From the NCBI GenBank assembly GCA_963823815.1, contig CAWGMU010000003.1:326442-390441 (forward strand): 64,000 bases of DNA, read 5' to 3'. Below the pieces are notes generated by a model, which saw only the letters and a list, made by a program, of their open reading frames with translations, searched no databases and had not been told where the DNA came from. The stretch comes from an uncultured Acidimicrobiaceae bacterium (GTDB lineage: Bacteria > Actinomycetota > Acidimicrobiia > Acidimicrobiales > RAAP-2). Numbering within the stretch: position 1 is the stretch's first letter; every line of letters starts with the position of its first letter. Of this stretch, positions 31,027-64,000 are shown piece by piece. The position numbers and the translations under genes are program-made.

Positions 31027-31137
31027 CCGGTCCATAGGTTCATTGAGTTTCCGCCACAAAGGAACGGAGATCGAGTCGGATCGGCACGCAACGAGTGGTA
31101 GGTGTACCGTCCGATTGTCGGGAAAGTTGTTCCTGAC

Positions 31138-31214
31138 GCGGAAGCGACGCGTTGACGCACGGGCTCCATTTGGTCGCCACACGGCCCGCGACGAGCTAAT
31201 GGCGAAACCGACGC
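31138..31214 (+). ncRNA. Probable c-di-GMP-II-class riboswitch aptamer
   Basis: The 3' segment GAG-CU-AAU-GGCGA-AA-CC-GA parallels class II GAG-YU-AGU-AGUGC-AA-CC-GA. Loop GG-UCGCC (31172-31178) keeps the pseudoknot pairing. P3 is CGGGC/GCCCG with UGA...GAG kink-turn-like flanks. P1 is short and uncertain. Confidence 0.62.
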
Positions 31215-31237
31215 CTCCCTACAGAAGTTGGAGGGTA

Positions 31238-52472: not shown

Positions 52473-53918
52473 TCAGGGGAGTGAGTTGATCACCACCTGC
52501 TTCACTCGGGTGAACTCCTCCACGCCCGCGGCGCCGCCCTCCTTGCCGTAGCCCGAGGAGCGGAATCCGCCCACCGGCATCTCCGGGCCGAGGGTCAGGT
52601 GGTCGTTGATCCAGACGGTCCCGAACTGCAGGGCGTTGGCGAAACGCGTCGCGCGTCCGACGTCACGCGTCCAGACGGACCCGGCCAGTCCGTATTCGAC
52701 GTCGTTGGCGAGTTGGAGCGCCTCGTCCTCGTCGGCGAACCGCTGCACCGTCACGACCGGCCCGAAGCACTCCTGCTGGACCAGGGCGTCGGCCTGGTCC
52801 AGATCGGTCACGATGGTCGGTTCGAAGAAGAAGCCGGGCCGCTCGGGAGCGCCGCCGCCGAGCACGATGGTCCCCGTCGAACGCGCTCCCTCGACGAAAC
52901 CGCGGACCCGTGTCCGCTGGGCCTCGGAGATGAGCGGGCCGAGGGTCGTCGCGCGATCGGCGGCCGCTCCGAGCGCAACCCGCTGGAACTCGCTCGCCAA
53001 TCCTGCGAGGAAGAAGTCGAGGAGGGGAGCGTGCACGAGGATCCTTGTTGCGGCGGTGCAGTCCTGACCGGCGTTGTAGAGCGCGCAGCCGGCGATGGTC
53101 GGGAGCGCCGACTCGAGGTCGACGTCGCTGAAGACAACCACCGGGGCGTTACCGCCGAGCTCGAGGACGACGGGTTTCGGCGTCGCCGCGGCGAGCTCGG
53201 CGATCCGTCGCCCCGCTCTGGTCGAACCCGTGAACGTCGTGAGCGCGGTCAGGGGATGGGTGACCAGCGCCTCGCCGGCGACGGGACCACGCCCGTGGAC
53301 GACGTTGAGCACGCCCGGCGGCAGGACTTCGGCCGCGAGTTCACCGAAGGCGGCCGTCGTCAGTGGCGTGTTCTCCGAGGGCTTGACGACGACGGTGTTG
53401 CCCGCGGCGAGCGCCGGGCCGATCTTCCAGACGGCCTGCCACAGCGGGTAGTTCCACGGCGTGATCGCGGCGACGACGCCAAGCGGTTCTCGCCGGAGGT
53501 AGAAGGAGCGTCCCGCCACGTAGTCGCCGCCGACCTGGCCCGAACCCATCCGCGCCGCACCGACGAAGTAGCGAAACGCGTCGGCGATGGCGGGGAACTC
53601 GACGTCGTGGGCGGCGGTCCACGGCTTTCCGGCGTCGAGTACCTCGAGGTCCGCGAACCGGTCCAGGTCGGCCTCGAAGCGGTCGGCAAGTTTGCGCAGC
53701 TGCTGGAAGCGCTCACCCGGCGTGTAGCTCGACCACCGCGGAAACGCTCGGTGAGCGGCCTGGATCGCGTCCTCGACGTCCGACGCCGACGAGTCGCCGA
53801 CGGTCGCGATGGTCTCTCCCGTCGAAGGGTCGAGCACGTCGATGGTGTCATCAGACGAAGCTGGCCGCAGCGCGCCGTCGATGAGATTGTCAACCCTTCG
53901 CACCGAGTTGTCGCGCAC
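52473..53918 (-). CDS. Aldehyde dehydrogenase (aminobutyraldehyde/betaine-aldehyde type)
   Basis: ITPWNYP, KPSE, FTGS, LELGG, NAGQDC and E.FGPV. Confidence 0.92.
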   Translation of the reverse strand: MRDNSVRRVDNLIDGALRPASSDDTIDVLDPSTGETIATVGDSSASDVEDAIQAAHRAFPRWSSYTPGERFQQLRKLADRFEADLDRFADLEVLDAGKPWTAAHDVEFPAIADAFRYFVGAARMGSGQVGGDYVAGRSFYLRREPLGVVAAITPWNYPLWQAVWKIGPALAAGNTVVVKPSENTPLTTAAFGELAAEVLPPGVLNVVHGRGPVAGEALVTHPLTALTTFTGSTRAGRRIAELAAATPKPVVLELGGNAPVVVFSDVDLESALPTIAGCALYNAGQDCTAATRILVHAPLLDFFLAGLASEFQRVALGAAADRATTLGPLISEAQRTRVRGFVEGARSTGTIVLGGGAPERPGFFFEPTIVTDLDQADALVQQECFGPVVTVQRFADEDEALQLANDVEYGLAGSVWTRDVGRATRFANALQFGTVWINDHLTLGPEMPVGGFRSSGYGKEGGAAGVEEFTRVKQVVINSLP

Positions 53919-54010: not shown

Positions 54011-55654
54011 CTATTCGACCGGGATCTCCTTGTTGATGAGACCGAGGTCGATGCCCTGGCTCTTGCGCACGAGTCGCGCCACGATGTAGACGACGATCGC
54101 GAGCACGTAGAGCGCGGCCATGAAGACGAGCGAACCCTTGTTGTTCACGCCGAACGCGCTGTTCTTCATCCACTCGATGAGGTTGTAGATGATGAGGCTC
54201 ATCGTCACGAGTCCCGCGACCGGCACGATGGGTACGCCCATGAATCGGAATTTGCTCGCGGCCGACGAGGCCCACAGCTCGGGCTTGCGCCAGGGGAGAA
54301 TGACGACCGCGAAGGCGCTGACGAGATACGTCACCGCGATCACGAGCGTCGCGTCCAAGGTATACGTCGCGAATTTGACCCAATAGGAGTAGACGGCGCT
54401 CAGCGCCACGGCCGGCAACAGCATCAAGAAGAGCGACGCCATCGGGACCTTGCGCTTCTCCGAGACCGAAGCGGCCGCGTCGGGCAGCACACGGTCGAAG
54501 GCAGCGGCGAAGATCACCCGAGTGGAGGAGAGAAAGAGTGTCCCGACCCAGCCGAAAAACCAGAGGCTCATCACGAGCAGCAAGATCACCTGGAAGGCCG
54601 CGTTGTGGACTAGCCAACCGGCCAGCATCATCGGGTACGGCCAGATCGGGATGGTCGCCTTGCCCGCCCAGTAGACGGCGTTCGCGTCGTTGTAGAACGA
54701 CCAGCCGAAGGTCTTGAGCATCAGCAACAAGAACACGACCGAGAGCAGGACCGTCAGCCAGAGGCCCGTGAACATGCCGGTGAAGACGCGCTTGAAGTCA
54801 CTCGCGCCGCGCACCTCGCCGTAGAGCGTCGAGCCCCAGTTCGGCCACAGGAGATAGAACATCAGCATCGGCACGAGCAGCATGCTCGCGCCCCAGGCGT
54901 TCAGCCCGAAGGCTGGCGCCGAGTAGCTGATGGCTTTCGCGGCGGACTGCGTGGCGCCGTAAGCGTGGTTGACGCCGAAGATCTTGTGCGCCTCAAGGTT
55001 GATGGAGCTCACGAAGCTGCTGTGCGAGTGGAAGAGCAACAAGACGACGACGGCGAGGAAGCCGACCATGCCGCCGAGGAAGCACCACTTCTGGATCTTG
55101 GCGTAGCCGCCCATGCCGAGCGAGACGAAGATGCCCGCCAGGATGATCGTGATGACGCAGATCGTCATCGTGCCGTTGTGCGTGCCGAAGTACGAGGCGA
55201 GGCCCTTCGCGCCGATGGTGTAGAGCACCGGCTGGAAGAGTTCGACGTTGAGGACCGTCCCGTAGATCGGCGCCCACAGCCAGAGGATGAACCACCAGCC
55301 GGTCGTCGCGAACACGAAGCCCACCGGTCCGCCGAGGATGCGACTCTGCCAGACGTAGTCGCCCCCGGCTCTCGGTATCGTCACGATGAGGCCGGTGTAG
55401 GCGATCACGAGGAACGACACCCACACCGCCGAGATCAGTACGCCCGTGAGCAACTGGCCCTTCGGGATGAACGAGTTGAAGGAGAACTCATAGATCCCGA
55501 GCGTGATGATGTTCGTCGACAGGCAGGCGTAGATGATCGCGTCGCGCACCGACCAGCCCCGCACTAGGCCGGTCGCCTTGCGCAGGAACAGCGTCGGGGC
55601 TTCGGACCCCAACGGCCTTCCCCCCAGGTCTCCGGTGTCTTCGGTAATTGCCAC
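54011..55654 (-). CDS. APC-superfamily amino acid/amine permease
   Basis: FLRKATGLVR, PRAGGDYVWQSR, GEV, R.IFA.AFDR.LP and C-terminal EIPVE. At least 12 TM segments. Confidence 0.88.
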   Translation of the reverse strand: MAITEDTGDLGGRPLGSEAPTLFLRKATGLVRGWSVRDAIIYACLSTNIITLGIYEFSFNSFIPKGQLLTGVLISAVWVSFLVIAYTGLIVTIPRAGGDYVWQSRILGGPVGFVFATTGWWFILWLWAPIYGTVLNVELFQPVLYTIGAKGLASYFGTHNGTMTICVITIILAGIFVSLGMGGYAKIQKWCFLGGMVGFLAVVVLLLFHSHSSFVSSINLEAHKIFGVNHAYGATQSAAKAISYSAPAFGLNAWGASMLLVPMLMFYLLWPNWGSTLYGEVRGASDFKRVFTGMFTGLWLTVLLSVVFLLLMLKTFGWSFYNDANAVYWAGKATIPIWPYPMMLAGWLVHNAAFQVILLLVMSLWFFGWVGTLFLSSTRVIFAAAFDRVLPDAAASVSEKRKVPMASLFLMLLPAVALSAVYSYWVKFATYTLDATLVIAVTYLVSAFAVVILPWRKPELWASSAASKFRFMGVPIVPVAGLVTMSLIIYNLIEWMKNSAFGVNNKGSLVFMAALYVLAIVVYIVARLVRKSQGIDLGLINKEIPVE

Positions 55655-55673
55655 GATTCCCCCTTGGTAGTGG

Positions 55674-56612
55674 TTAGCCGTTGACGAGGATGTACCTCGT
55701 CACCTTCTTCTTCTTTTCGTTGAGATCGATCACGGCGCCCTGGAGGACGCCGTCGGTGTAGACGCTGCCGGGATTGAGCGCCAAGGTGCGGCCCAGGTTC
55801 TTCATGCCCCGGCTCTCGTGGATGTGGCCGTGCACCGAGAGCATCGGCTGGTGCTTCATGATCGCCTCGGCGACGGCCTTCGAGCCGACCGGCTCCATGA
55901 CTGCGCCGCCATGCTTCGGCCGCAGGGTCTCGTCGAGTGCCGGCGCCTCGTCGAGGCCCGAGTTATAGGGCGGCGCGTGGAAGTTGAAGATGGCCCGACC
56001 CATGTCGGGGATCTGCTCGGCGAGGGCCTCGATGCGCTGGGCGAGCTCGGGCTCGCTGGCCTCGCGGAAGGTGTTCCAGGGGGTGGGGTTGGTGTAGCCC
56101 ATTGAGGCTAGATAGAACCCGTCGAGTTCGACGACCTTGCCCTCGGTGAAGTTCACGTGGGGCGCGGACTCGATGACGTTGTCGATCTCGAAGGTGTCGT
56201 CGTTGCCGCCGTTCAGGTAGCACGGGATCGTTCCCTCGCGCAGCTTCGAGTCGGCCATGTCCAGCCAGCGGTCGAGGGTGTGGACCATCTCGGTCGTGAA
56301 GCGACGGTCGATCGAGCCGTCCTCCTCGTTGAGGGCGTTGAGCTCCTCAGAGGAGATGCGGGTGGGGTAGAAGCCGCGGTTGCGGATCAGCGCCTCGATG
56401 GCCTTCACCTCTTCTTCGGACTCGAGGTGGTGCTTTTCGCCGGCGAAGGTGACCTCGTAGAAGCCGTTCCCGACGACGACCGGCACCAGCACCTTCCCGG
56501 TGAGGTCGCCGCCCAGGATCACCATGTCCGCTTTGTAGAAGGCGGCGGCGTTCAGGAACTTGCGCCAGCAGATCTCCGAGCCGTGGATGTCGGTCGCGAA
56601 GAAGATCCTCAT
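55674..56612 (-). CDS. Calcineurin-like (Icc-related) metallophosphoesterase
   Basis: TDIHGS, GGDLTGK, GNDD, HAPP and HGHIHE. Confidence 0.9.
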   Translation of the reverse strand: MRIFFATDIHGSEICWRKFLNAAAFYKADMVILGGDLTGKVLVPVVVGNGFYEVTFAGEKHHLESEEEVKAIEALIRNRGFYPTRISSEELNALNEEDGSIDRRFTTEMVHTLDRWLDMADSKLREGTIPCYLNGGNDDTFEIDNVIESAPHVNFTEGKVVELDGFYLASMGYTNPTPWNTFREASEPELAQRIEALAEQIPDMGRAIFNFHAPPYNSGLDEAPALDETLRPKHGGAVMEPVGSKAVAEAIMKHQPMLSVHGHIHESRGMKNLGRTLALNPGSVYTDGVLQGAVIDLNEKKKKVTRYILVNG

Positions 56613-56655
56613 GCCCGCCTTCGCACCTCCCGACTACCGCTCAGGGCGAGCGTAA

Positions 56656-56671
56656 AACCACCATATGGAAC
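56656..56671 (-). promoter_or_regulatory. Candidate IclR-like site upstream of phosphoesterase-APC-ALDH
   Basis: Minus-strand GTTCCATATGGTGGTT matches GTTCTACAATGTGATT (63322-63337) at 11 of 16 positions. Confidence 0.4.
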
Positions 56672-56738
56672 GGCGCTTCTCGCCGCCTACCCGGAGCGCT
56701 GGCAATGCTTATCACAGGTCCCCAAGAGTTTCAAGGAG

Positions 56739-57518
56739 TTAGTGATCAACCTCTTCGGGTAACTCGTACCAGCGCGTCCGCTCACCGACCTTGGCGCGCA
56801 TCTTCCACTTCATCGACTTGGGCGTCGTGTTCGCGATCTCGAAAAGCAAGACGGCGCTCGCCAAGGCGTCGTACGGCGCGGGTGTCGGCACGAGGTGCGG
56901 ATGCTCCTCGGCGAGGTGCGGCAGCTTCGCGAGGTTGCCCGTGACGGTGCGCCACCAACCCCAGTCACCGGCGAGGACCTTCTCGAATCTCGTCGCGTCG
57001 ATGCCGCCCGCACTCGTGGTCTCGCCGACCACCACGGGGTGTCCCGAGAGCAGGTGGAAGATGTCGTGCGCGTCCTTCTCGTTGATCTCGATGATCTGGA
57101 GCTTCGTGAGCAGCACGTCGACGACGTCGAGCGTGATCGGCATCGCCGAGAAGCGCGGTCGAAAGTCCAGCACGTGGCACATGTTGAGCTGGTCCACCAT
57201 CACGTCGATCGGCCGCCCCGAGGGCGCGTTGAAGTACATCTGGCGATCACCGTTGAGCGAGTTGAACCGCTTGTCCGCCTCGCAGCCGGCCGACTCGAGG
57301 TAGGTGACGACGTCCTTTCGACCCTTCGAGAGACAGCCGAAGTCGATGTCCTGATCCCGGCGCAGTCGCGGCGTGAAGTCGGGGCAGAGCACGCGCACCG
57401 CCAGTCCGCCGAGCAGACGCAAGTGCACGCCCGCGGCGGCGGCCCCCTCGGCGAGCGCGCGCGCCTCGGTTAAGGGGTCGTCGGCCGTGCCGACGAGGTC
57501 CGCTGCGCTCTCGGCCAT
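56739..57518 (-). CDS. Pol-beta-superfamily nucleotidyltransferase-like protein
   Basis: LLGGLAV (hGG), DIDF (DxD), IDV (third Asp), LLTKL and KD..D. Confidence 0.75.
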   Translation of the reverse strand: MAESAADLVGTADDPLTEARALAEGAAAAGVHLRLLGGLAVRVLCPDFTPRLRRDQDIDFGCLSKGRKDVVTYLESAGCEADKRFNSLNGDRQMYFNAPSGRPIDVMVDQLNMCHVLDFRPRFSAMPITLDVVDVLLTKLQIIEINEKDAHDIFHLLSGHPVVVGETTSAGGIDATRFEKVLAGDWGWWRTVTGNLAKLPHLAEEHPHLVPTPAPYDALASAVLLFEIANTTPKSMKWKMRAKVGERTRWYELPEEVDH

Positions 57519-57585: not shown

Positions 57586-58464
57586 TCAGCGACGCGCCGT
57601 CGAGTCGTCGAGCGTGGGGGAGTGCGTCGTGGCGGCGGCGAGCAGCGACTGGCGCCACTGTTCGGTCTCGCGCAGTTGGTTGAACGTGAAGACGTGCACA
57701 CCGTCGACCTTGTTCCCCGGGTCCGCCAAGGCCGCTCCCTCGCGTTGGAGCAGCCGAGTCGGGTCGTAGCCGCCGGGCGTGCCGAGGCGCACGATCCAGT
57801 TCCGGTGCCCCGAGAGGACCCGCGCCGATTCGCCGACGCCGATCTTCGTCGCCATGCGCAACAGCTTCGCCTGCTCGACGGGTCCCGCGAGTCCGAAGTA
57901 GAGCGGCAACTCGACGCCGCGCGAGCGCACCCGCGCGATCCATTTGCGCGCCGTCGTCGCGTTGAAACAGAGGTTGCTCACGATGTAGGTGGCGTAGCGG
58001 CGCTTGTCCCACATCGCCTGAACGGTGAGGTCGTCCGAGATGCGCGGATGGCTCTCGGGATAGCCGGTGATCCCGACGTTCGGAAACGGCCGCCCGAGTT
58101 CGTCGAGTTCGAGCAGCAGACCGAGCGAGCTGTCGTAGCGCCCGACCGGGGGATCGGCGTCGCCCGCGGGAACAAAGACGTCCTCCACGCCGAGGGCCAC
58201 GAGTCGCGCGACGATCTCTTCCAAGTGCGAGCGATCGACGACGAGTCTCGCCGAGACGTGCGGCACGACGCGATAACCCTCAGCGCGAAGGCGCTCGGTT
58301 ATCTCGAGCGAGGTGTCGAGGCCCTTGGTGGGCGAGGCCGTCACGGTGACGGTGACGTCGCGCGGCACGAACTCGAGGACCTTCTGCGCGATGGACGCGT
58401 TGGGGATGATCTCGTAACGTGGACGCTCGAGCAAGGTCGTGGCCGACCGGAGTGAACTACGCAC
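57586..58464 (-). CDS. metF: Methylenetetrahydrofolate reductase (MetF-like)
   Basis: YEIIP, VVPHVSAR, AGD, ITGYPESHP and HVFTFN. Methyl-transfer gene context. Confidence 0.82.
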   Translation of the reverse strand: MRSSLRSATTLLERPRYEIIPNASIAQKVLEFVPRDVTVTVTASPTKGLDTSLEITERLRAEGYRVVPHVSARLVVDRSHLEEIVARLVALGVEDVFVPAGDADPPVGRYDSSLGLLLELDELGRPFPNVGITGYPESHPRISDDLTVQAMWDKRRYATYIVSNLCFNATTARKWIARVRSRGVELPLYFGLAGPVEQAKLLRMATKIGVGESARVLSGHRNWIVRLGTPGGYDPTRLLQREGAALADPGNKVDGVHVFTFNQLRETEQWRQSLLAAATTHSPTLDDSTARR

Positions 58465-59125
58465 GATGACTCACCGCCACCGTCGCCCCGGATGAGCGCG
58501 CCATCCGCAGAAGACTCTCGAGCTCGACTTCGAGTGAACCGGTGCCGACGTTCACGATCTCGAGCGGCAAGGCGAAGAGCGTCGCCACCGCGCGGGCCTC
58601 CTCTTCGAGTTCGGCGCGCGGTCGCTGTGCCAGCCACACGACGCGCCGATAGTGGGAGAAGTAGTCGCCCCAGAGCTCGGGGTGACGGTCGAGACCGAGC
58701 TCGTGTAGCACGGTGCGGCGAAAGCTCTTCACCAAGAAGTCCGTCAGCAGATAGGTGCCGGGCTCTGCGGCGAACAGCTCAGCGACTTCGGTCGAGCCGG
58801 CAAAGACGTCGTAGCAGTGCTGACCGCCGAGGCGCTCGAGCGAGAGTCGGCGACAGACGTCGTCGAGCGCGCCGTAGGTGCCACAGTCGGCGTAGGCGAG
58901 AGCGACGCGGTGACCCTGAGAGAGGAGCTCTCGGGCGAGGGACTCGACCGCCGGTGCGATCTCGTGGGGACGATTGTGCAACAGAGCGGGCAGGAGATGG
59001 AGGTCGACGGACCAGTTCCGACGACTCGCGATCTCGCGGATCGAGGGGCCGAGCGCCCCGCAGGCGATGACCGCGACCTCGGGAACCTCAGGCGGGGAAG
59101 GCCAGCTGATCGACGAATCGGTCAT
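58457..59125 (-). CDS. DUF1638-like protein (corrinoid reactivation accessory)
   Basis: VIACGAL, LHNRP..I, YADCGT.G.LD, HCY, YLLTDFL and YF.HY. Adjacent to the ASKHA activator. Confidence 0.8.
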   Translation of the reverse strand: MTDSSISWPSPPEVPEVAVIACGALGPSIREIASRRNWSVDLHLLPALLHNRPHEIAPAVESLARELLSQGHRVALAYADCGTYGALDDVCRRLSLERLGGQHCYDVFAGSTEVAELFAAEPGTYLLTDFLVKSFRRTVLHELGLDRHPELWGDYFSHYRRVVWLAQRPRAELEEEARAVATLFALPLEIVNVGTGSLEVELESLLRMARSSGATVAVSHRA

Positions 59126-60992
59126 TGAAGTCGCTTCTATCGGAAAGCTCGACATACTCCACCTCCTCCAGCAAGGTCATGGCCCCCGCGCGTTCGCGCA
59201 GACTGAGGAGCGTCATCTTCGCGCCTTCACCGGCGACGTTGCCGGCGCTGACGATGCGCAGCAGCGGGAGCTTTGGCACGAGACCCAAGCGAACGGCGCT
59301 CGCTGGTGAGAGGTAGCTCCCGAAGGAGCCGGCGAGCAGGACCTGCTGGAGGTCCTCGACGGCGAGCCCCGCCTCTTCGAGCAGTATGCGCCATCCGGTC
59401 GCGATCGCGGCCTTCGCGAACTGCAGCTCGCGGACGTCGCGCTGTGAGAGATAGATCGACTGTTCGACGTCGCCCTCGTCGCCGAGCCAGTGCACGACAA
59501 AGACGCGGTGCTCGCCCAACTGGGTCAATCGGTCGGCGACCCCGGGCGCGAGAGTTGCGGCCTCGTCGTCGCTCACGAATCGACCCGACGAGTCGATGAG
59601 CTTCAGCTCCACCAGTTCGGCTACGACGTCGACGAGTCCCGATCCGCACAGTCCGAGTGGTTCGGCGTCGCCGATGACGCCGAGCTCGATCCCATCGGCG
59701 CGCACCTTGACGACCTCAATGGCGCCCGGCGCGGCGCGCATCCCGCAGCGGATGGCGGCGCCTTCGAAGGCCGGACCCGCCGGCGCGGCCGTCGCGAGAA
59801 GGCGATCGCTGTTGCCGACGACCACTTCGCAGTTGGTGCCGATGTCGAGGAAGAGCCGCACGCGAGAGTCCCGGTCCATGCCCGACGCCAAGAGCCCCGC
59901 AATGATGTCCCCGCCGACGTAGGCGCCCAGCGCCGGGAAGACCACCGCGCGAGCTCGTTCGTGCACGTTGACGCCGACGTCGCTCGCGAGGATCTCGGGG
60001 AAGAACTTCGTTGACATGATGAAGGGCGCGACACCGAGCGCCTCGGGGTCGATGCCCAGCACGACGTGGGTCATGGTGGCGTTGCCCGCGATCGCCACTT
60101 CGTAGACCTCGCTCGGATTGACGCCGCCCTCTAGACAGACGGCCTGGGCGAGCTCGTCGAGCGACTCGTGGGCCAGCTGGGTCAACCGCTCGAGTGCCCG
60201 AATGTCCATCATGATGGCGCTGATGCGCGTGATCACGTCGGCGCCGAAGGGCTGCTGCTTGTTGAGCATCGAGTGCACCGCGACGGGCGTGCCGGTCGAG
60301 AGGTCGAGCAGCGTCGCGACGACGGTCGTCGTGCCGAGGTCGAAGGCGATGGCGAAGTTGCGTTCGGTGGTGTCGCCGGGCTCCACCGCGATCAGGACGT
60401 CATCGACGACAACGGCGGTCACCTTGTAGTCGTTCGCGCGCAGCACCGTGCCGAGTGAGCGCAGCACGCTGAGCTCGGGCCGCAACTCGAGGTCGTCAAG
60501 GGCCGCGAAGAGCCGATCGAGGTCGGTCGTCTGGTCCGACAGCGAAGGTGCCGCGAGCTCCACGTAGCGCTTCTGGACGGCGGGGCGCAGGATGACTTTG
60601 CGTCCGACACCGACGGTCGCCGCCTTCGGCCGAGTGACCAGTGGCGGGACCTCGACGTGGAGGTTGCTCGTAACTTCCACGCGGCAGGCGAGTCGCCAGC
60701 CAGCGCGCAGCTCGTCGGTCGAGTAGGCGCGGGTGTCGAGCGCGGTGATCGGCGCAGCCCCGTCGAGAACCTTGACCTTGCATTTGCGGCACGTGCCGTG
60801 ACCGCCACAGGTGGAGTCGATGGCGACCCCGTTCCAGCTCGCGGCGTCAAAGAGGATGACACCCGGCGGCACGCGAACCTTGCGTCCGGCCGGTTCGAAA
60901 AGGAGGTCGAATCGGCCCCGCGCGTCTCCGGTGAGACCACCCGTTGATCCCGCGAGCGGTTCGTCGTCGCGAAGCGTTCGGGCCTCGCTCAT
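59088..60992 (-). CDS. Reductive activator of corrinoid proteins (2Fe-2S plus ASKHA ATPase, RACE/RamA-like)
   Basis: CGGHGTCRKC...RLAC, DLGTTT, GADVITRI, DIGTN.E, AGPAFEG, CGSG and LAGSFG. Confidence 0.92.
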   Translation of the reverse strand: MSEARTLRDDEPLAGSTGGLTGDARGRFDLLFEPAGRKVRVPPGVILFDAASWNGVAIDSTCGGHGTCRKCKVKVLDGAAPITALDTRAYSTDELRAGWRLACRVEVTSNLHVEVPPLVTRPKAATVGVGRKVILRPAVQKRYVELAAPSLSDQTTDLDRLFAALDDLELRPELSVLRSLGTVLRANDYKVTAVVVDDVLIAVEPGDTTERNFAIAFDLGTTTVVATLLDLSTGTPVAVHSMLNKQQPFGADVITRISAIMMDIRALERLTQLAHESLDELAQAVCLEGGVNPSEVYEVAIAGNATMTHVVLGIDPEALGVAPFIMSTKFFPEILASDVGVNVHERARAVVFPALGAYVGGDIIAGLLASGMDRDSRVRLFLDIGTNCEVVVGNSDRLLATAAPAGPAFEGAAIRCGMRAAPGAIEVVKVRADGIELGVIGDAEPLGLCGSGLVDVVAELVELKLIDSSGRFVSDDEAATLAPGVADRLTQLGEHRVFVVHWLGDEGDVEQSIYLSQRDVRELQFAKAAIATGWRILLEEAGLAVEDLQQVLLAGSFGSYLSPASAVRLGLVPKLPLLRIVSAGNVAGEGAKMTLLSLRERAGAMTLLEEVEYVELSDRSDFNDRFVDQLAFPA

Positions 60993-61852
60993 TGGCCGCT
61001 CGCGGCCACCTGGGATCGATGGGTGGCGATCCACGCGGCCCCCCACGGGTCGCGATCGAGGAGGAGATCGCCGGCCTGAACGGCCCGCACCAATTGGGGC
61101 GTGCGCGCGTCCATGATCGCGCTCGTAAGCCCGCACTGCATCGCGATGGGCAAGAACGTCGCCCCGAGGGTTGCGCGATCGGGCATGCCGAAGGAGACGT
61201 TCGACGCGCCGAGGGTCATGTTCACCCCGAGTTCGTTATGGATCAGTGCAATGGTCTCCAAGGTCTTGGCGACAAGGGTGGTGTCCGCTCCGATGGGCAT
61301 CGCGAGCGGGTCGATGAGGACGTCTTCGACAGGGATGCCGTACTCGCCGGTCGCGACCGCCACGAGCTTTCGCGCGAGCTCGAGTCGCCGCTCGGGCTCG
61401 TAGGGGATCTCGTTCTCGTCGTTGGGCAGTCCGATGATCGCCGCGCCGTAGCGTTTCACGAGCGGCAGGATCGCCTCGAGCCGATCGTCCTCGGCGGTGA
61501 CCGAGTTGACGAGGGCCTTGCCTTGGTACGTCGCGAGTCCGGCGTCGAGGGCCTCGATGACCGAGGAGTCAATGCAAAGTGGTAGGTCGGTGAGTCCCTG
61601 AATCATGGTGACGGCCTGGATCATGAGGTCGACCTCGTCGGCGAGGGGGACGCCCATGTTGACGTCGAGCACCATGGCGCCGCCCGCGACCTGCTGGGCG
61701 ACGTCGATCGCGATGCGCGAGAGGTCGCCGGCGCGCAGCTGCTCTTGGAAGATGCTGCGCCCGGTCGGGTTGATGCGTTCCCCGATGATGCAGAACGGCT
61801 GGTCCACCCCGATGACCACTTCCTTGGTCGGCGAGGAGAGGACGGTGTGCAC
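60989..61852 (-). CDS. Methyltetrahydrofolate:corrinoid methyltransferase (pterin-binding domain, AcsE/MetH-like)
   Basis: IIGERINPTGR, LDVN, IDSS, NSV, IDPL and GASNVSFG.P. Confidence 0.92.
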   Translation of the reverse strand: MHTVLSSPTKEVVIGVDQPFCIIGERINPTGRSIFQEQLRAGDLSRIAIDVAQQVAGGAMVLDVNMGVPLADEVDLMIQAVTMIQGLTDLPLCIDSSVIEALDAGLATYQGKALVNSVTAEDDRLEAILPLVKRYGAAIIGLPNDENEIPYEPERRLELARKLVAVATGEYGIPVEDVLIDPLAMPIGADTTLVAKTLETIALIHNELGVNMTLGASNVSFGMPDRATLGATFLPIAMQCGLTSAIMDARTPQLVRAVQAGDLLLDRDPWGAAWIATHRSQVAASGQ

Positions 61853-61857
61853 GGCGA

Positions 61858-62523
61858 CTACGCCAGGGCCGTGGCGCGACGTCGCGCCAGGAGGTCCTTC
61901 GCCTTCTTCACGGCGGCCGACGCGTCCGAGGCGTAGCCGTCGGCTCCGACGGCGTCGGCGTACTCCTGGGTGACCGGGGCGCCGCCAACCATCACGATGA
62001 CCTTCTCACGCAGACCGGCCTTCTCGAGCACGTTCATGTTGGCCTTGAACATCGGCATCGTGGTCGTGAGGAACGCCGAGAAGCCGACGATGTCGGGCTT
62101 GTGCTCGATGATCGCTTCGACGAAGCGTTCGGGGGCGACCTGAACCCCGAGGTCGATCACGTGGAAGCCCGCGCCCTCGAGCATGATGTCGACCAGGTTC
62201 TTGCCGATGTCGTGCACGTCGCCCTTCACGGTGCCCATGACGAACGTGCCCACGGGTTCGACGCCGGTCTCGACCATGAGTGGCCGCAGGACCTCGAGTG
62301 CCCCGGCCATGGCGCGCCCCGCGATGAGCATCTCGGGTACGAAGAAGTCGCCACGCTCGAAGCGCGCGCCGACCTCCTCGAGCGAGGGGATGAGCGAGTC
62401 GAAGAGCAGGGTCTCGGGGGTGAGGCCCATGGCGAGGCCGGCGTTCGTGAGCTCGAGCACCACCGGCGCGTTGCCGAGCAGCGTGGCGTCGTACATCTCC
62501 TTTAAGAGCTCGTCCTGGTTCAC
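61858..62523 (-). CDS. Corrinoid (B12-binding) protein
   Basis: FVPEML, GTVKGDVHDIGKNLV (DxHxxG), S.FLTTT and GGAP. Confidence 0.95.
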   Translation of the reverse strand: MNQDELLKEMYDATLLGNAPVVLELTNAGLAMGLTPETLLFDSLIPSLEEVGARFERGDFFVPEMLIAGRAMAGALEVLRPLMVETGVEPVGTFVMGTVKGDVHDIGKNLVDIMLEGAGFHVIDLGVQVAPERFVEAIIEHKPDIVGFSAFLTTTMPMFKANMNVLEKAGLREKVIVMVGGAPVTQEYADAVGADGYASDASAAVKKAKDLLARRRATALA

Positions 62524-63308
62524 GCGGCCCCCCTCCTCTTCGCTCGGTACCCGAGGGTTGCTGACAACGCGTTCGCCTCATTGACGCACTGAGCGCCGAC
62601 CTGGCTGACGCGCGTCGCGCCGAAGCGCGTCGACGGTCCCGACACCGAGATCGCGGCGAGAACGACTCCGTCGGCCCGACGCACCGGTGCGGCAACGGCG
62701 ACGAGCCCGGACTCGAGCTCCTCGTTCGCGACGGCGAAGCCGCGTCGTCGGATCCGGGCCAACTCCGCGTCGAGTTCGGTCCGCGAGGTAATGGTCCTCG
62801 GGGTGAGGCGTTCGAGGCGCCCCGGGGGCAGCGTGGCCGCGCCGTAGGCGAGGAGGACCTTGCCGAGTGCCGTGCAGTGCAGCGGCTCGGAGCGGCCGAG
62901 CCAGTTGGTGCCGCCGAGCACGTAGCGGCTGTCGACCTGGGCGATCTGGACGACGAGGGCGTGACGGATGACCCCGAGGTTGACCGTCTCGCGACTGCGC
63001 TCGCCCAGACGTTCGAGGAAGGGCTGCGCGACGGCGGCGAGGTCGGTCTCGGCGTTCGCGCCGAGCGCGTAGCGCACGAAGGCCTCCCCGGGCACGAAGC
63101 CACTCGGGTCGCGGCGGAGCAGTCCATTGCGTTCGAGGGCACTGAGGATGCGCGACGCGGTGCTCTTGGCGAGTCCGGAGGTCTCGGTGAGTTCGGCGAA
63201 GCTGACCGGACGGGTCGCCTCGACGACGTGACGCACGAGCGCGGCGGCCCGGTCGATGGCCTGCGAGCCGGACGGCTTGGTCGTGGCGGTCGCTTGCACG
63301 GGTTCCAT
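62520..63308 (-). CDS. IclR-family regulator heading the corrinoid operon
   Basis: GLAKSTASRIL HTH, ETVNL, PLHCTALGK and AVAAPV. Confidence 0.93.
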   Translation of the reverse strand: MEPVQATATTKPSGSQAIDRAAALVRHVVEATRPVSFAELTETSGLAKSTASRILSALERNGLLRRDPSGFVPGEAFVRYALGANAETDLAAVAQPFLERLGERSRETVNLGVIRHALVVQIAQVDSRYVLGGTNWLGRSEPLHCTALGKVLLAYGAATLPPGRLERLTPRTITSRTELDAELARIRRRGFAVANEELESGLVAVAAPVRRADGVVLAAISVSGPSTRFGATRVSQVGAQCVNEANALSATLGYRAKRRGAA

Positions 63309-63385
63309 AGTACAGTACGAGGTTCTACAATGTGATTCGCGGCCTCAGGCGCGTGGCTGCTGATCTCGAGCGAAGTGGGGTGACG

Positions 63386-64000
63386 ATGTTCGTAAACAAG
63401 ATGGCCCGCTACGAGCTGCTCTCACCCGACGCGATCGAGGTCCTTGATCGCGGGTGGCGACGCATCGTCTCGGAGATCGGCGTGCAGTTCGTGAAGCCCG
63501 AGGCGACCGAGCTGTTCGCCAAGGCCGGACAGAAGGTGGACGGCCAGACCGTGTGGCTCGACCCCGACTTCGTGATGGAGCAGATCGCAAAGGCCCCAGG
63601 CGAGTTCGACGTCCAGGCGCGCAACCCGGCCAACAACGTCCACGTCGGTGGTGACGCCATGATCTTCTCTGGGGTGTACGGCCCCCCGTTCGTGCGCGCC
63701 GGTAGCGAGCGACGCGACGCCACGCTCGATGACTTCCGAAAGTTCTGCATGCTCGCCCAGAGTTTCCCCGAGCTGGACTCGGCCGGCGGGGTCATCTGCG
63801 AACCCAACGACGCGCCACTCGACTCACGGCACCTCGACATGATCTACGCCCTGCAGACGGTGACCGACAAGTTCTACATGGGCAACGTCGTCTCGGGCGT
63901 AAACGCGCGCGACACGATCAAGATGACCGAGATCCTCTTTGGCAGTCGCGAGACCATCGAGGAGACTCCCGCGACGATCTCGCTCATCAACTGCAACTCG
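63386..64000 (+). CDS. Trimethylamine methyltransferase (MttB) superfamily protein, 3' end outside window
   Basis: Manual translation MFVNKMARYELLS...EIGVQF...AP.EF...ARNP...YGPPFV...RRDATL.DF...CEPND.PLDSRHLD...INCNS matches the MttB N-half. Divergent from the corrinoid protein operon. Confidence 0.88.
   Translation, partial: MFVNKMARYELLSPDAIEVLDRGWRRIVSEIGVQFVKPEATELFAKAGQKVDGQTVWLDPDFVMEQIAKAPGEFDVQARNPANNVHVGGDAMIFSGVYGPPFVRAGSERRDATLDDFRKFCMLAQSFPELDSAGGVICEPNDAPLDSRHLDMIYALQTVTDKFYMGNVVSGVNARDTIKMTEILFGSRETIEETPATISLINCNS

Follow-up and report, generated by a model that had tools for sequence, protein, structure and literature searches.

What does a corrinoid-dependent methyltransferase module do in the genome of an uncultured soil bacterium of the class Acidimicrobiia? 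Soils and peat are rich in the osmolytes glycine betaine and choline; how aerobic soil bacteria take off the first methyl group is known chiefly from Rieske monooxygenases and, since 2025, from the corrinoid system MtgBCD of marine Proteobacteria. The module considered here lies at the end of a 64,000-nucleotide stretch of DNA (G000:C3:326442-390441, hereafter the window) from a host genome, G000, of 2.16 Mb in three contigs that is 77% complete. It consists of a minus-strand run of genes at 57586-63308, assigned by Pfam to a methylenetetrahydrofolate reductase (MTHFR)-like protein, a DUF1638 protein, a RACo/RamA activase, a Pterin_bind protein, a corrinoid protein and an IclR regulator, and of a divergent MttB-family gene on the plus strand that crosses the window end at 64000. 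Judging from these genes and their surroundings, the locus probably encodes an aerobic-type MtgBCD glycine betaine:tetrahydrofolate (THF) methyltransferase within a choline/glycine-betaine catabolic locus. A preliminary description of the same DNA had listed MttB, a corrinoid protein, a methyltransferase II, an activator, DUF1638, MetF and an IclR, and Pfam found all of them. The features of the module, in window positions and with protein lengths in amino acids (aa), are:

57586..58464, minus strand: metF2-like gene, a divergent MTHFR homologue (weak PF02219 match of 26.5 bits, cut-off 24)
58457..59155, minus strand: DUF1638 protein (PF07796, 82.5 bits)
59088..60992, minus strand: ramA, RACo-type ATP-dependent reductive activase (Fer2, RACo_linker, Raco_middle, RACo_C_ter)
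60989..61852, minus strand: mtgD, methyl-corrinoid:THF methyltransferase, pterin-binding TIM barrel (Pterin_bind, 91.8 bits)
61858..62523, minus strand: mtgC, corrinoid (cobalamin-binding) protein (B12-binding_2 and B12-binding, Pfam)
62520..63308, minus strand: IclR-family regulator, first gene of the minus-strand operon (HTH_IclR and IclR_C, 137.8 bits)
63309..63385, no strand: divergent intergenic region between iclR and mtgB, 77 bp, bounded by the start codons
63386..64000, plus strand: mtgB-like gene, MttB superfamily, non-pyrrolysine, 5' part (entire gene 479 aa, ending at L003:2267, that is G000:C3:391263)

The minus-strand gene junctions overlap by 4-8 bases, iclR overlapping mtgC by 4 bases and the ramA ATG at 60992 overlapping the mtgD stop, which indicates an operon-like arrangement. 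The 77-bp spacer presumably carries promoters together with an IclR operator, a function that we infer. When 80 related species loci, all labelled Actinomycetota, were compared, the divergent orientation of iclR and mttB was found in 77. No match to a cobalamin riboswitch was obtained with Rfam in the window plus 20 kb downstream.

The methyltransferase and its corrinoid partners

Within the window, the MTTB Pfam match to the MttB-family gene (start 63332/63386) scores 204.6 bits over the first 223 aa. The full-length gene matches PF06253 with 617.9 bits (profile positions 12-500) in a 504-aa open frame with zero in-frame stops, and the ATG at 63386, which has AAGTGGGG upstream, yields 479 aa, the length of nearly all homologues. 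Among solved structures the best match was 4YYC (1e-130, 439 bits), which we identified as the MttB-family protein of the Sinorhizobium meliloti pSymB mtg locus, followed by Desulfitobacterium hafniense MtgB (2QNE/9YCE; 1e-114, 387 bits), whereas the true pyrrolysine MttB 7XCL matched at only 1e-37. The preliminary description had pointed to an extension of the contig for the residue equivalent to pyrrolysine; this position (X in 7XCL) aligns to Leu335, a sense residue as in 2QNE and 4YYC, and no in-frame stop is present. The chemistry proposed at that stage, in which a non-pyrrolysine MttB-family enzyme would pass a methyl group of a quaternary amine via a corrinoid protein to THF, is supported at the level of sequence. 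The homologue search returned only close relatives that were unnamed or labelled 'trimethylamine methyltransferase', and a plasmid collection contained only proteobacterial homologues of <60% identity.

The partners expected of such an enzyme are encoded on the other strand. MtgC carries the DxHxxG motif (D102-x-H104-x-x-G107) and is the sole stand-alone corrinoid protein copy found in the host genome. MtgD passes model NF005719 (291.9 against a cut-off of 259); its leading matches in the PDB are AcsE/MeTr 1F6Y (1e-42) and 2YCK, with the MetH folate domain next, and D. hafniense MtgA was not among these matches. The activase aligns end to end with Carboxydothermus hydrogenoformans RACo (3ZYY, E 2e-100) and bears an N-terminal [2Fe-2S] motif (Cys62/68/71/103). 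By analogy with split-MetH/MtgBCD systems, the DUF1638 protein may be an accessory for corrinoid reactivation (PMC12478193).

The MTHFR-like protein, here called MetF2-like, is distinct from the housekeeping MetF, which scores 229 bits and is encoded beside FolD on contig 2. Its top PDB match is S6MTHFR (7XG9, E 3.8e-31), canonical MTHFRs following at 5e-5. S6MTHFR from Sphingobium lignivorans is a type 4 MTHFR that oxidises the methyl-THF produced by THF-dependent demethylases (PMC11868366). We propose that the MetF2-like protein is likewise a methyl-THF oxidase, the direction of the reaction being taken from its context; an oxidation of methyl-THF by MetF had been suggested for this locus before, and both the position of the gene and its best solved relative agree with it.

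A predicted route from choline to sarcosine

About 100 bp downstream of mttB, on the same strand and beyond the window, lies a gene for an 840-aa protein with DAO, FAO_M, GCV_T and GCV_T_C domains, whose PDB matches are Arthrobacter dimethylglycine oxidase 1PJ5 (E 2e-159) and then mammalian dimethylglycine dehydrogenase (DMGDH). The GcvT-like gene anticipated downstream by the preliminary description therefore exists, in the form of this GCV_T-domain dimethylglycine oxidase/dehydrogenase homologue. The genes for the electron-transfer flavoprotein (ETF) subunits EtfB and EtfA come next, and with the oxidase/dehydrogenase gene directly upstream of etfBA, ETF seems a likelier electron acceptor than O2. 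Just outside the window, 6 kb beyond the same gene, on the opposite strand and past a BNR/DUF4232 gene, a GMC oxidoreductase matches the choline dehydrogenase equivalog TIGR01810 (836 against a cut-off of 732) and is termed BetA here. Taken as predicted functions, the gene order reads as a route from choline through betaine aldehyde, glycine betaine and dimethylglycine to sarcosine. At the other end of the module, four further co-oriented features precede metF2:

52473..53918, minus strand: NAD(P)-dependent aldehyde dehydrogenase of the aminobutyraldehyde/betaine-aldehyde group (Aldedh, 529 bits)
54011..55654, minus strand: APC-superfamily permease, a candidate importer (AA_permease_2, 42.8 bits)
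55674..56612, minus strand: calcineurin-like metallophosphoesterase-like gene (weak Metallophos matches, below or near cut-off)
56739..57518, minus strand: small open reading frame (ORF) without clear family (longer frame: PF14907 nucleotidyltransferase-like, E 7e-4, below cut-off)

The aldehyde dehydrogenase starts with a GTG at 53918 that is preceded by GAGGGGAG. It had been suggested that this enzyme and the permease supply the betaine. Both genes are present, the dehydrogenase could do so and BetA stands just outside the window; as to what the permease carries, an Atlas look-up returned generic APC clusters only. The small ORF, the metallophosphoesterase-like gene and the permease (54011-57518) keep their position between the aldehyde dehydrogenase and metF2, with 66-90% identity, in the five closest relatives whose flanks extend that far: the permease is 81-90% identical in these relatives, the metallophosphoesterase-like gene is found at the same position with 79-86% identity and the small ORF is conserved beside metF2, even though its 259-aa frame gave zero Pfam matches. 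All three may belong to the same operon as metF2.

From homology and gene order, the following chain of reactions can be proposed. BetA and the aldehyde dehydrogenase would oxidise choline to glycine betaine, from which MtgB would move one N-methyl group to the Co(I) of MtgC, leaving dimethylglycine. The methyl group would then pass from methyl-Co(III)-MtgC to THF via MtgD, and the resulting methyl-THF could either be oxidised to methylene-THF by the MetF2-like protein and further to formate by FolD and PurU, or be used directly by MetH. MtgC that had fallen to Co(II) would be re-reduced at the expense of ATP by the RACo-type [2Fe-2S]/ASKHA activase, assisted by DUF1638. The adjacent dimethylglycine oxidase/DMGDH homologue would demethylate dimethylglycine and deliver electrons to EtfBA and the respiratory chain, and a paralogue on contig 2 would serve for sarcosine. 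Both divergent operons would be under IclR control.

This paralogue, a second DMGDH-family protein of 820 aa (G000:C2:328239-330701; L091:6240-8702, plus strand), is 33% identical to the mttB-adjacent one and, by its similarity, a candidate for the sarcosine-demethylating enzyme. The neighbours of its gene are a further APC permease and a choline/ethanolamine-kinase-like gene accompanied by an S-adenosylmethionine methyltransferase. PurU scores above cut-off in the host genome, about 90 kb from the cluster, and is encoded within about 10 kb of it in three relatives. Of folD and fhs, which the preliminary description had named as further genes to look for, the first is present on contig 2 beside the canonical MetF, and the second, for formyltetrahydrofolate synthetase (FTHFS, PF01268), gave no match in the 77%-complete genome.

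Glycine betaine as the probable substrate

Glycine betaine as the substrate is argued for chiefly by gene order, the strongest argument being the dimethylglycine-oxidising enzyme right after mttB, with BetA nearby. The residue comparison for glycine betaine specificity is suggestive, not complete. In MtgB, mutagenesis and a ligand-bound structure set the glycine betaine contacts as Y97, R312, H348 and F356 (PMC13080624), and by alignment three of the four are kept, Y116, R330 and H366 corresponding to MtgB Y97, R312 and H348. In place of the fourth, F356, the alignment has Gly374; a conserved Trp370, four residues N-terminal to this glycine, may, to go by its position, act as a stand-in. The S. 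meliloti protein 4YYC shows the same pattern (three contacts kept, F356 not, a Trp nearby), and across 121 close homologues the contact positions and Trp370 are invariant or nearly so.

The missing F356 is one of several points that weigh against the assignment. The top NCBIfam model for MtgC is the glycine-betaine corrinoid protein MtgC_2, at a score of 203.9 that stays below the cut-off of 370, and the RamA-type activase falls under the NCBIfam cut-off for AcsV and misses that of the RamA model as well. The aldehyde dehydrogenase misses both candidate models and fits aminobutyraldehyde dehydrogenase (NF010000, 594.7 against a cut-off of 615) slightly better than betaine-aldehyde dehydrogenase (TIGR01804, 458.5 against 668.6). 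The type-4 MTHFR motif comprises Leu48-Pro49, Arg78, Cys219 and Pro268-Phe269; the MetF2-like protein keeps the P49 and F269 equivalents and lacks four of the six residues (L48S, R78L, C219I, P268T), so that its reaction direction is not secured. We therefore do not assign it to type 4, and its sequence may represent a separate MTHFR branch. Most of the related Actinomycetes-type loci are without DMGDH within 10 kb. Finally, since the host genome is 77% complete, the absences of MtgE, MetE, FTHFS, acetyl-CoA synthase (ACS), ETF-QO and CobS are provisional.

The main rival is that the MttB-family enzyme acts on another quaternary amine (proline betaine, carnitine, gamma-butyrobetaine, choline or phosphocholine), the rest of the chain being the same. 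In its favour, besides Gly374 in place of F356, R312 and largely H348 are common to MtcB, MtpB, MtyB and MthB and therefore do not discriminate between substrates; the protein resembles D. hafniense MtgB (387 bits) and its S. meliloti counterpart (439) to roughly the same degree; and the metallophosphoesterase-like gene and the APC permease stand in what may be the same operon. These features have to be set against the Tyr kept at Y97, as conservation of the aromatic pair does not extend to enzymes of the other specificities (PMC13080624), and against the dimethylglycine oxidase/dehydrogenase homologue and BetA gene downstream of mttB, an arrangement that is repeated in 14-16 closest relatives. 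We consider a substrate other than glycine betaine unlikely.

That the main role is methionine or one-carbon supply, either as a split methionine synthase or as a methyl-THF source for MetH driven by glycine betaine, as in Phaeobacter and Ruegeria, and not catabolism for energy, appears quite improbable. A core-MetE-like gene within 10 kb of the module in 18/80 loci, a full-length metH in several and the failure to find MetE in the 77%-complete host genome would fit such a role. In agreement with the preliminary description, however, no homocysteine-binding domain is present in the window, and PF02574 matches nowhere in the genome except within a complete five-domain MetH on another contig; an MtgE-type partner was not found. 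A full-length MetH, together with the failure to find the homocysteine-binding module separately, points to a catabolic system rather than to a split methionine synthase. Each of the five closest carriers checked likewise has one full-length MetH. The cluster is furthermore bundled with the methyl-THF-oxidase-like MetF2, DMGDH, ETF and BetA, and the module is absent from 104/120 species of the genus, high-quality genomes included, as fits an accessory catabolic rather than a core biosynthetic trait.

Acetogen-style, strictly oxygen-independent methylotrophy, with methyl disproportionation or a Wood-Ljungdahl-type pathway in an anaerobe, as the preliminary description had framed the locus, can be set aside as highly improbable: although the corrinoid, RACo and AcsE-like parts are best studied in acetogens and Desulfitobacterium and the methyl-transfer step requires no oxygen, the host carries two haem-copper oxidase subunit I (COX1) genes, neither CdhC/ACS (PF03598) nor FTHFS matched in its 77%-complete genome, the adjacent enzyme is nearest an oxidase/ETF-linked dehydrogenase and would feed ETF, and the same machinery functions in aerobic Ruegeria.

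We thus favour a glycine betaine:THF methyltransferase of the aerobic type, and conclude that the earlier interpretation was right in its chemistry and wrong in lifestyle and in the degree of novelty.

The host and its supply of cobalamin

The actinobacterial host assumed from the start is confirmed by the nearest MttB genes (86-93% identity), which belong to Acidimicrobiaceae/Acidimicrobiales metagenome-assembled genomes (MAGs) from palsa, peat and Danish soils. The two haem-copper oxidases, among other features, indicate an aerobe that respires oxygen. The sequencing runs listed as containing the window are DNA runs of soil metagenomes, 4 of which belong to a single study, and there were no RNA runs among them. 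Since a family-level search had returned no other carrier of the MttB gene (0 of 150), misbinning of the cluster was suspected; it was rejected, as GC content and tetranucleotide profile agree across the 3 contigs (r = 0.9995), an ortholog occurs in 16/120 species of the genus and MetH identities of 79-89% assign the carriers to the genus of the host.

The host genome, 77% complete, yielded neither an ETF-QO domain nor the cobalamin synthase CobS. Among six cluster-bearing genomes of the genus (G000, G161, G190, G198, G225, G233), CobS was found in only one. The carriers may be cobalamin scavengers, all of them dependent on the B12 enzymes MetH and MtgC.

Two observations concern neighbouring DNA. 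A BNR/Asp-box and DUF4232 protein is encoded between etfA and betA (L003:6739-8400, plus strand) and is found at that place in 0/80 related loci. Elsewhere in the window, at 31136-31222 on the plus strand, Rfam matched the c-di-GMP-II-GAG riboswitch aptamer RF03169 over the full model length (50.3 bits against a gathering score of 40).

Distribution of the module

The module occurs in at least 80 soil Actinomycetota species, MAGs labelled Streptosporangiaceae, Micromonosporaceae and Nocardiopsaceae included. The order metF2-DUF1638-ramA-mtgD-mtgC-iclR with a divergent mttB is kept in 50-77 of the 80 loci, the lowest figure (50/80) applying to the metF2-like gene, and the extension by DMGDH, EtfBA and BetA is found in 14-16 closest Acidimicrobiia. 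A genus-wide search recovered the mttB ortholog in the 16 species already mentioned, or in 7/70 of the high-quality genomes when G000 is counted. Within this large uncultured genus the module is an accessory trait. Of 400 high-quality genomes drawn from across the phylum, 49 carry an MttB-family gene at E <= 1e-50 and only 3 carry one that exceeds 70% identity; one unpublished genome, G676, is part of this tally, and none of our conclusions rests on it.

Between the host and MAGs labelled Streptosporangiaceae, Micromonosporaceae and Nocardiopsaceae (L020-L086), MttB is 80-84% and MtgC 76-84% identical; for MetH, a comparison among the families within the order of the host gives only 61-68%. 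The high identity of MttB and MtgC between classes could reflect transfer, strong constraint or mislabelled bins. The core-MetE-like gene (Meth_synt_2, about 380 aa) referred to above is no more than 10 kb away from the mttB module in its 18 loci, and a MetH activation domain was found within the same distance in 9/80, mostly inside a full-length metH; examples of MetE- or MetH-linked loci are L022:15016-16161, L024:14499-15185 and L033:17143-20904, all on the minus strand. Such neighbours, of which the window has none, hint that the Actinomycetes-type loci are connected with methionine synthesis.

A wider reading may be put forward as a tentative whole, one that we would sooner doubt than rely on. 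It holds that the iclR-mtgC-mtgD-ramA-DUF1638-metF2 cassette with its divergent mtgB spreads horizontally among soil Actinomycetota, that it is uncoupled from methionine synthesis, that it includes a methyl-THF oxidase from a previously unclassified MTHFR branch, and that B12-dependent demethylation of glycine betaine and choline is a significant and overlooked aerobic process of soil and peat, carried out in part by B12 scavengers.

If glycine betaine is indeed the substrate, the B12-dependent route reaches another phylum and another habitat, complete in one locus, and the turnover of betaine in soil becomes linked to cobalamin supply. The annotation 'trimethylamine methyltransferase' in soil data, and readings of anaerobic methylotrophy in peat studies, then need caution.

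Comparison with known systems

The locus reveals no new mechanism, and its novelty had been overstated in the preliminary description. Aerobic Ruegeria pomeroyi demethylates glycine betaine via MtgB, MtgC and MtgD (SPO2108/2134, SPO2160, SPO1863), as established by proteomics and knockouts (Mausz et al., PNAS 2025, PMC12478193), with a support set of RamA, DUF1638 and MetF2, and its MtgC and MtgD double as parts of a split methionine synthase. According to the same study, other marine bacteria carry similar clusters beside genes for dimethylglycine and sarcosine, the MtgBCDE genes of S. meliloti are colocalized at one locus and Actinomycetota account for 5% of ocean mtgC reads (PMC12478193); names of Actinobacteria have zero occurrences in its supplements. 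At Stordalen Mire, Actinobacteriota were among the expressers of corrinoid methyltransferase (mtxB) genes, which was framed as anaerobic methylotrophy (PMC10805028). Our literature search found no paper on the pathway in Acidimicrobiia, so that to call it under-described for this kind of organism was fair.

Some of the individual parts have well-studied counterparts. The activase shares with RACo (3ZYY) and methanogen RamA the N-terminal [2Fe-2S] domain and the ASKHA ATPase, and differs in that its partner here would be a small MtgC-type protein, not CoFeSP. Like S6MTHFR (7XG9), the MetF2-like protein is encoded beside a demethylase predicted to produce methyl-THF, and the four-domain architecture of the 840-aa protein is that of Arthrobacter globiformis dimethylglycine oxidase 1PJ5 and of mitochondrial DMGDH. 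With the MtgABC systems of D. hafniense (MtgB DSY3156, 2QNE/9YCE) and Methanolobus vulcani the locus has in common the MtgB homologue, Y97/R312/H348, the DxHxxG motif and a methyl group that ends on THF. Those hosts are anaerobes, whereas here F356 is not kept, the downstream chemistry appears respiratory and the methyl-corrinoid:THF enzyme is AcsE/MetH-like, without a match to D. hafniense MtgA.

The split methionine synthase of Phaeobacter inhibens (PMC12478193) resembles the module in its corrinoid protein, pterin methyltransferase, RamA-like protein and DUF1638; a stand-alone homocysteine-binding module was not found here, in contrast, and a classical MetH is present. In the S. meliloti pSymB mtg locus, too, the gene of the corrinoid protein is divergent from mttB, and the locus further encodes DUF1638, a methyl-THF:cobalamin methyltransferase, an ASKHA protein and bmt. 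Identities to it are 46% for MttB, 45% for MtgC, 44% for MtgD, 33% for RamA and 39% for DUF1638, whereas the MetF2-like protein gives zero BLAST match to the MetF/MetV pair and is an MTHFR of another branch.

With the aerobic proteobacterial MtgBCD systems as a group, the locus shares seven kinds of parts (a non-pyrrolysine MttB, a corrinoid protein, an AcsE/MetH-like pterin methyltransferase, an ASKHA activase, DUF1638, an extra MTHFR and nearby genes for dimethylglycine demethylation) and an aerobic host. It differs in that this host is a soil actinomycetote instead of a marine or rhizobial proteobacterium, and in that an MtgE/Bhmt-type homocysteine module was not found and a full MetH is present, which would make a dual role unnecessary. 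Additionally, an IclR gene heads the operon and the predicted choline-to-sarcosine route stands in a single locus. It is thus a known mechanism in a new host, and what is new lies in the phylum and habitat of that host, in a MetH in a genome where MtgE was not found, in the MTHFR of another branch and in the IclR regulator, with MtgB, MtgC, MtgD, the RamA-type activase, DUF1638 and an extra MetF all six together in one locus of an aerobe.

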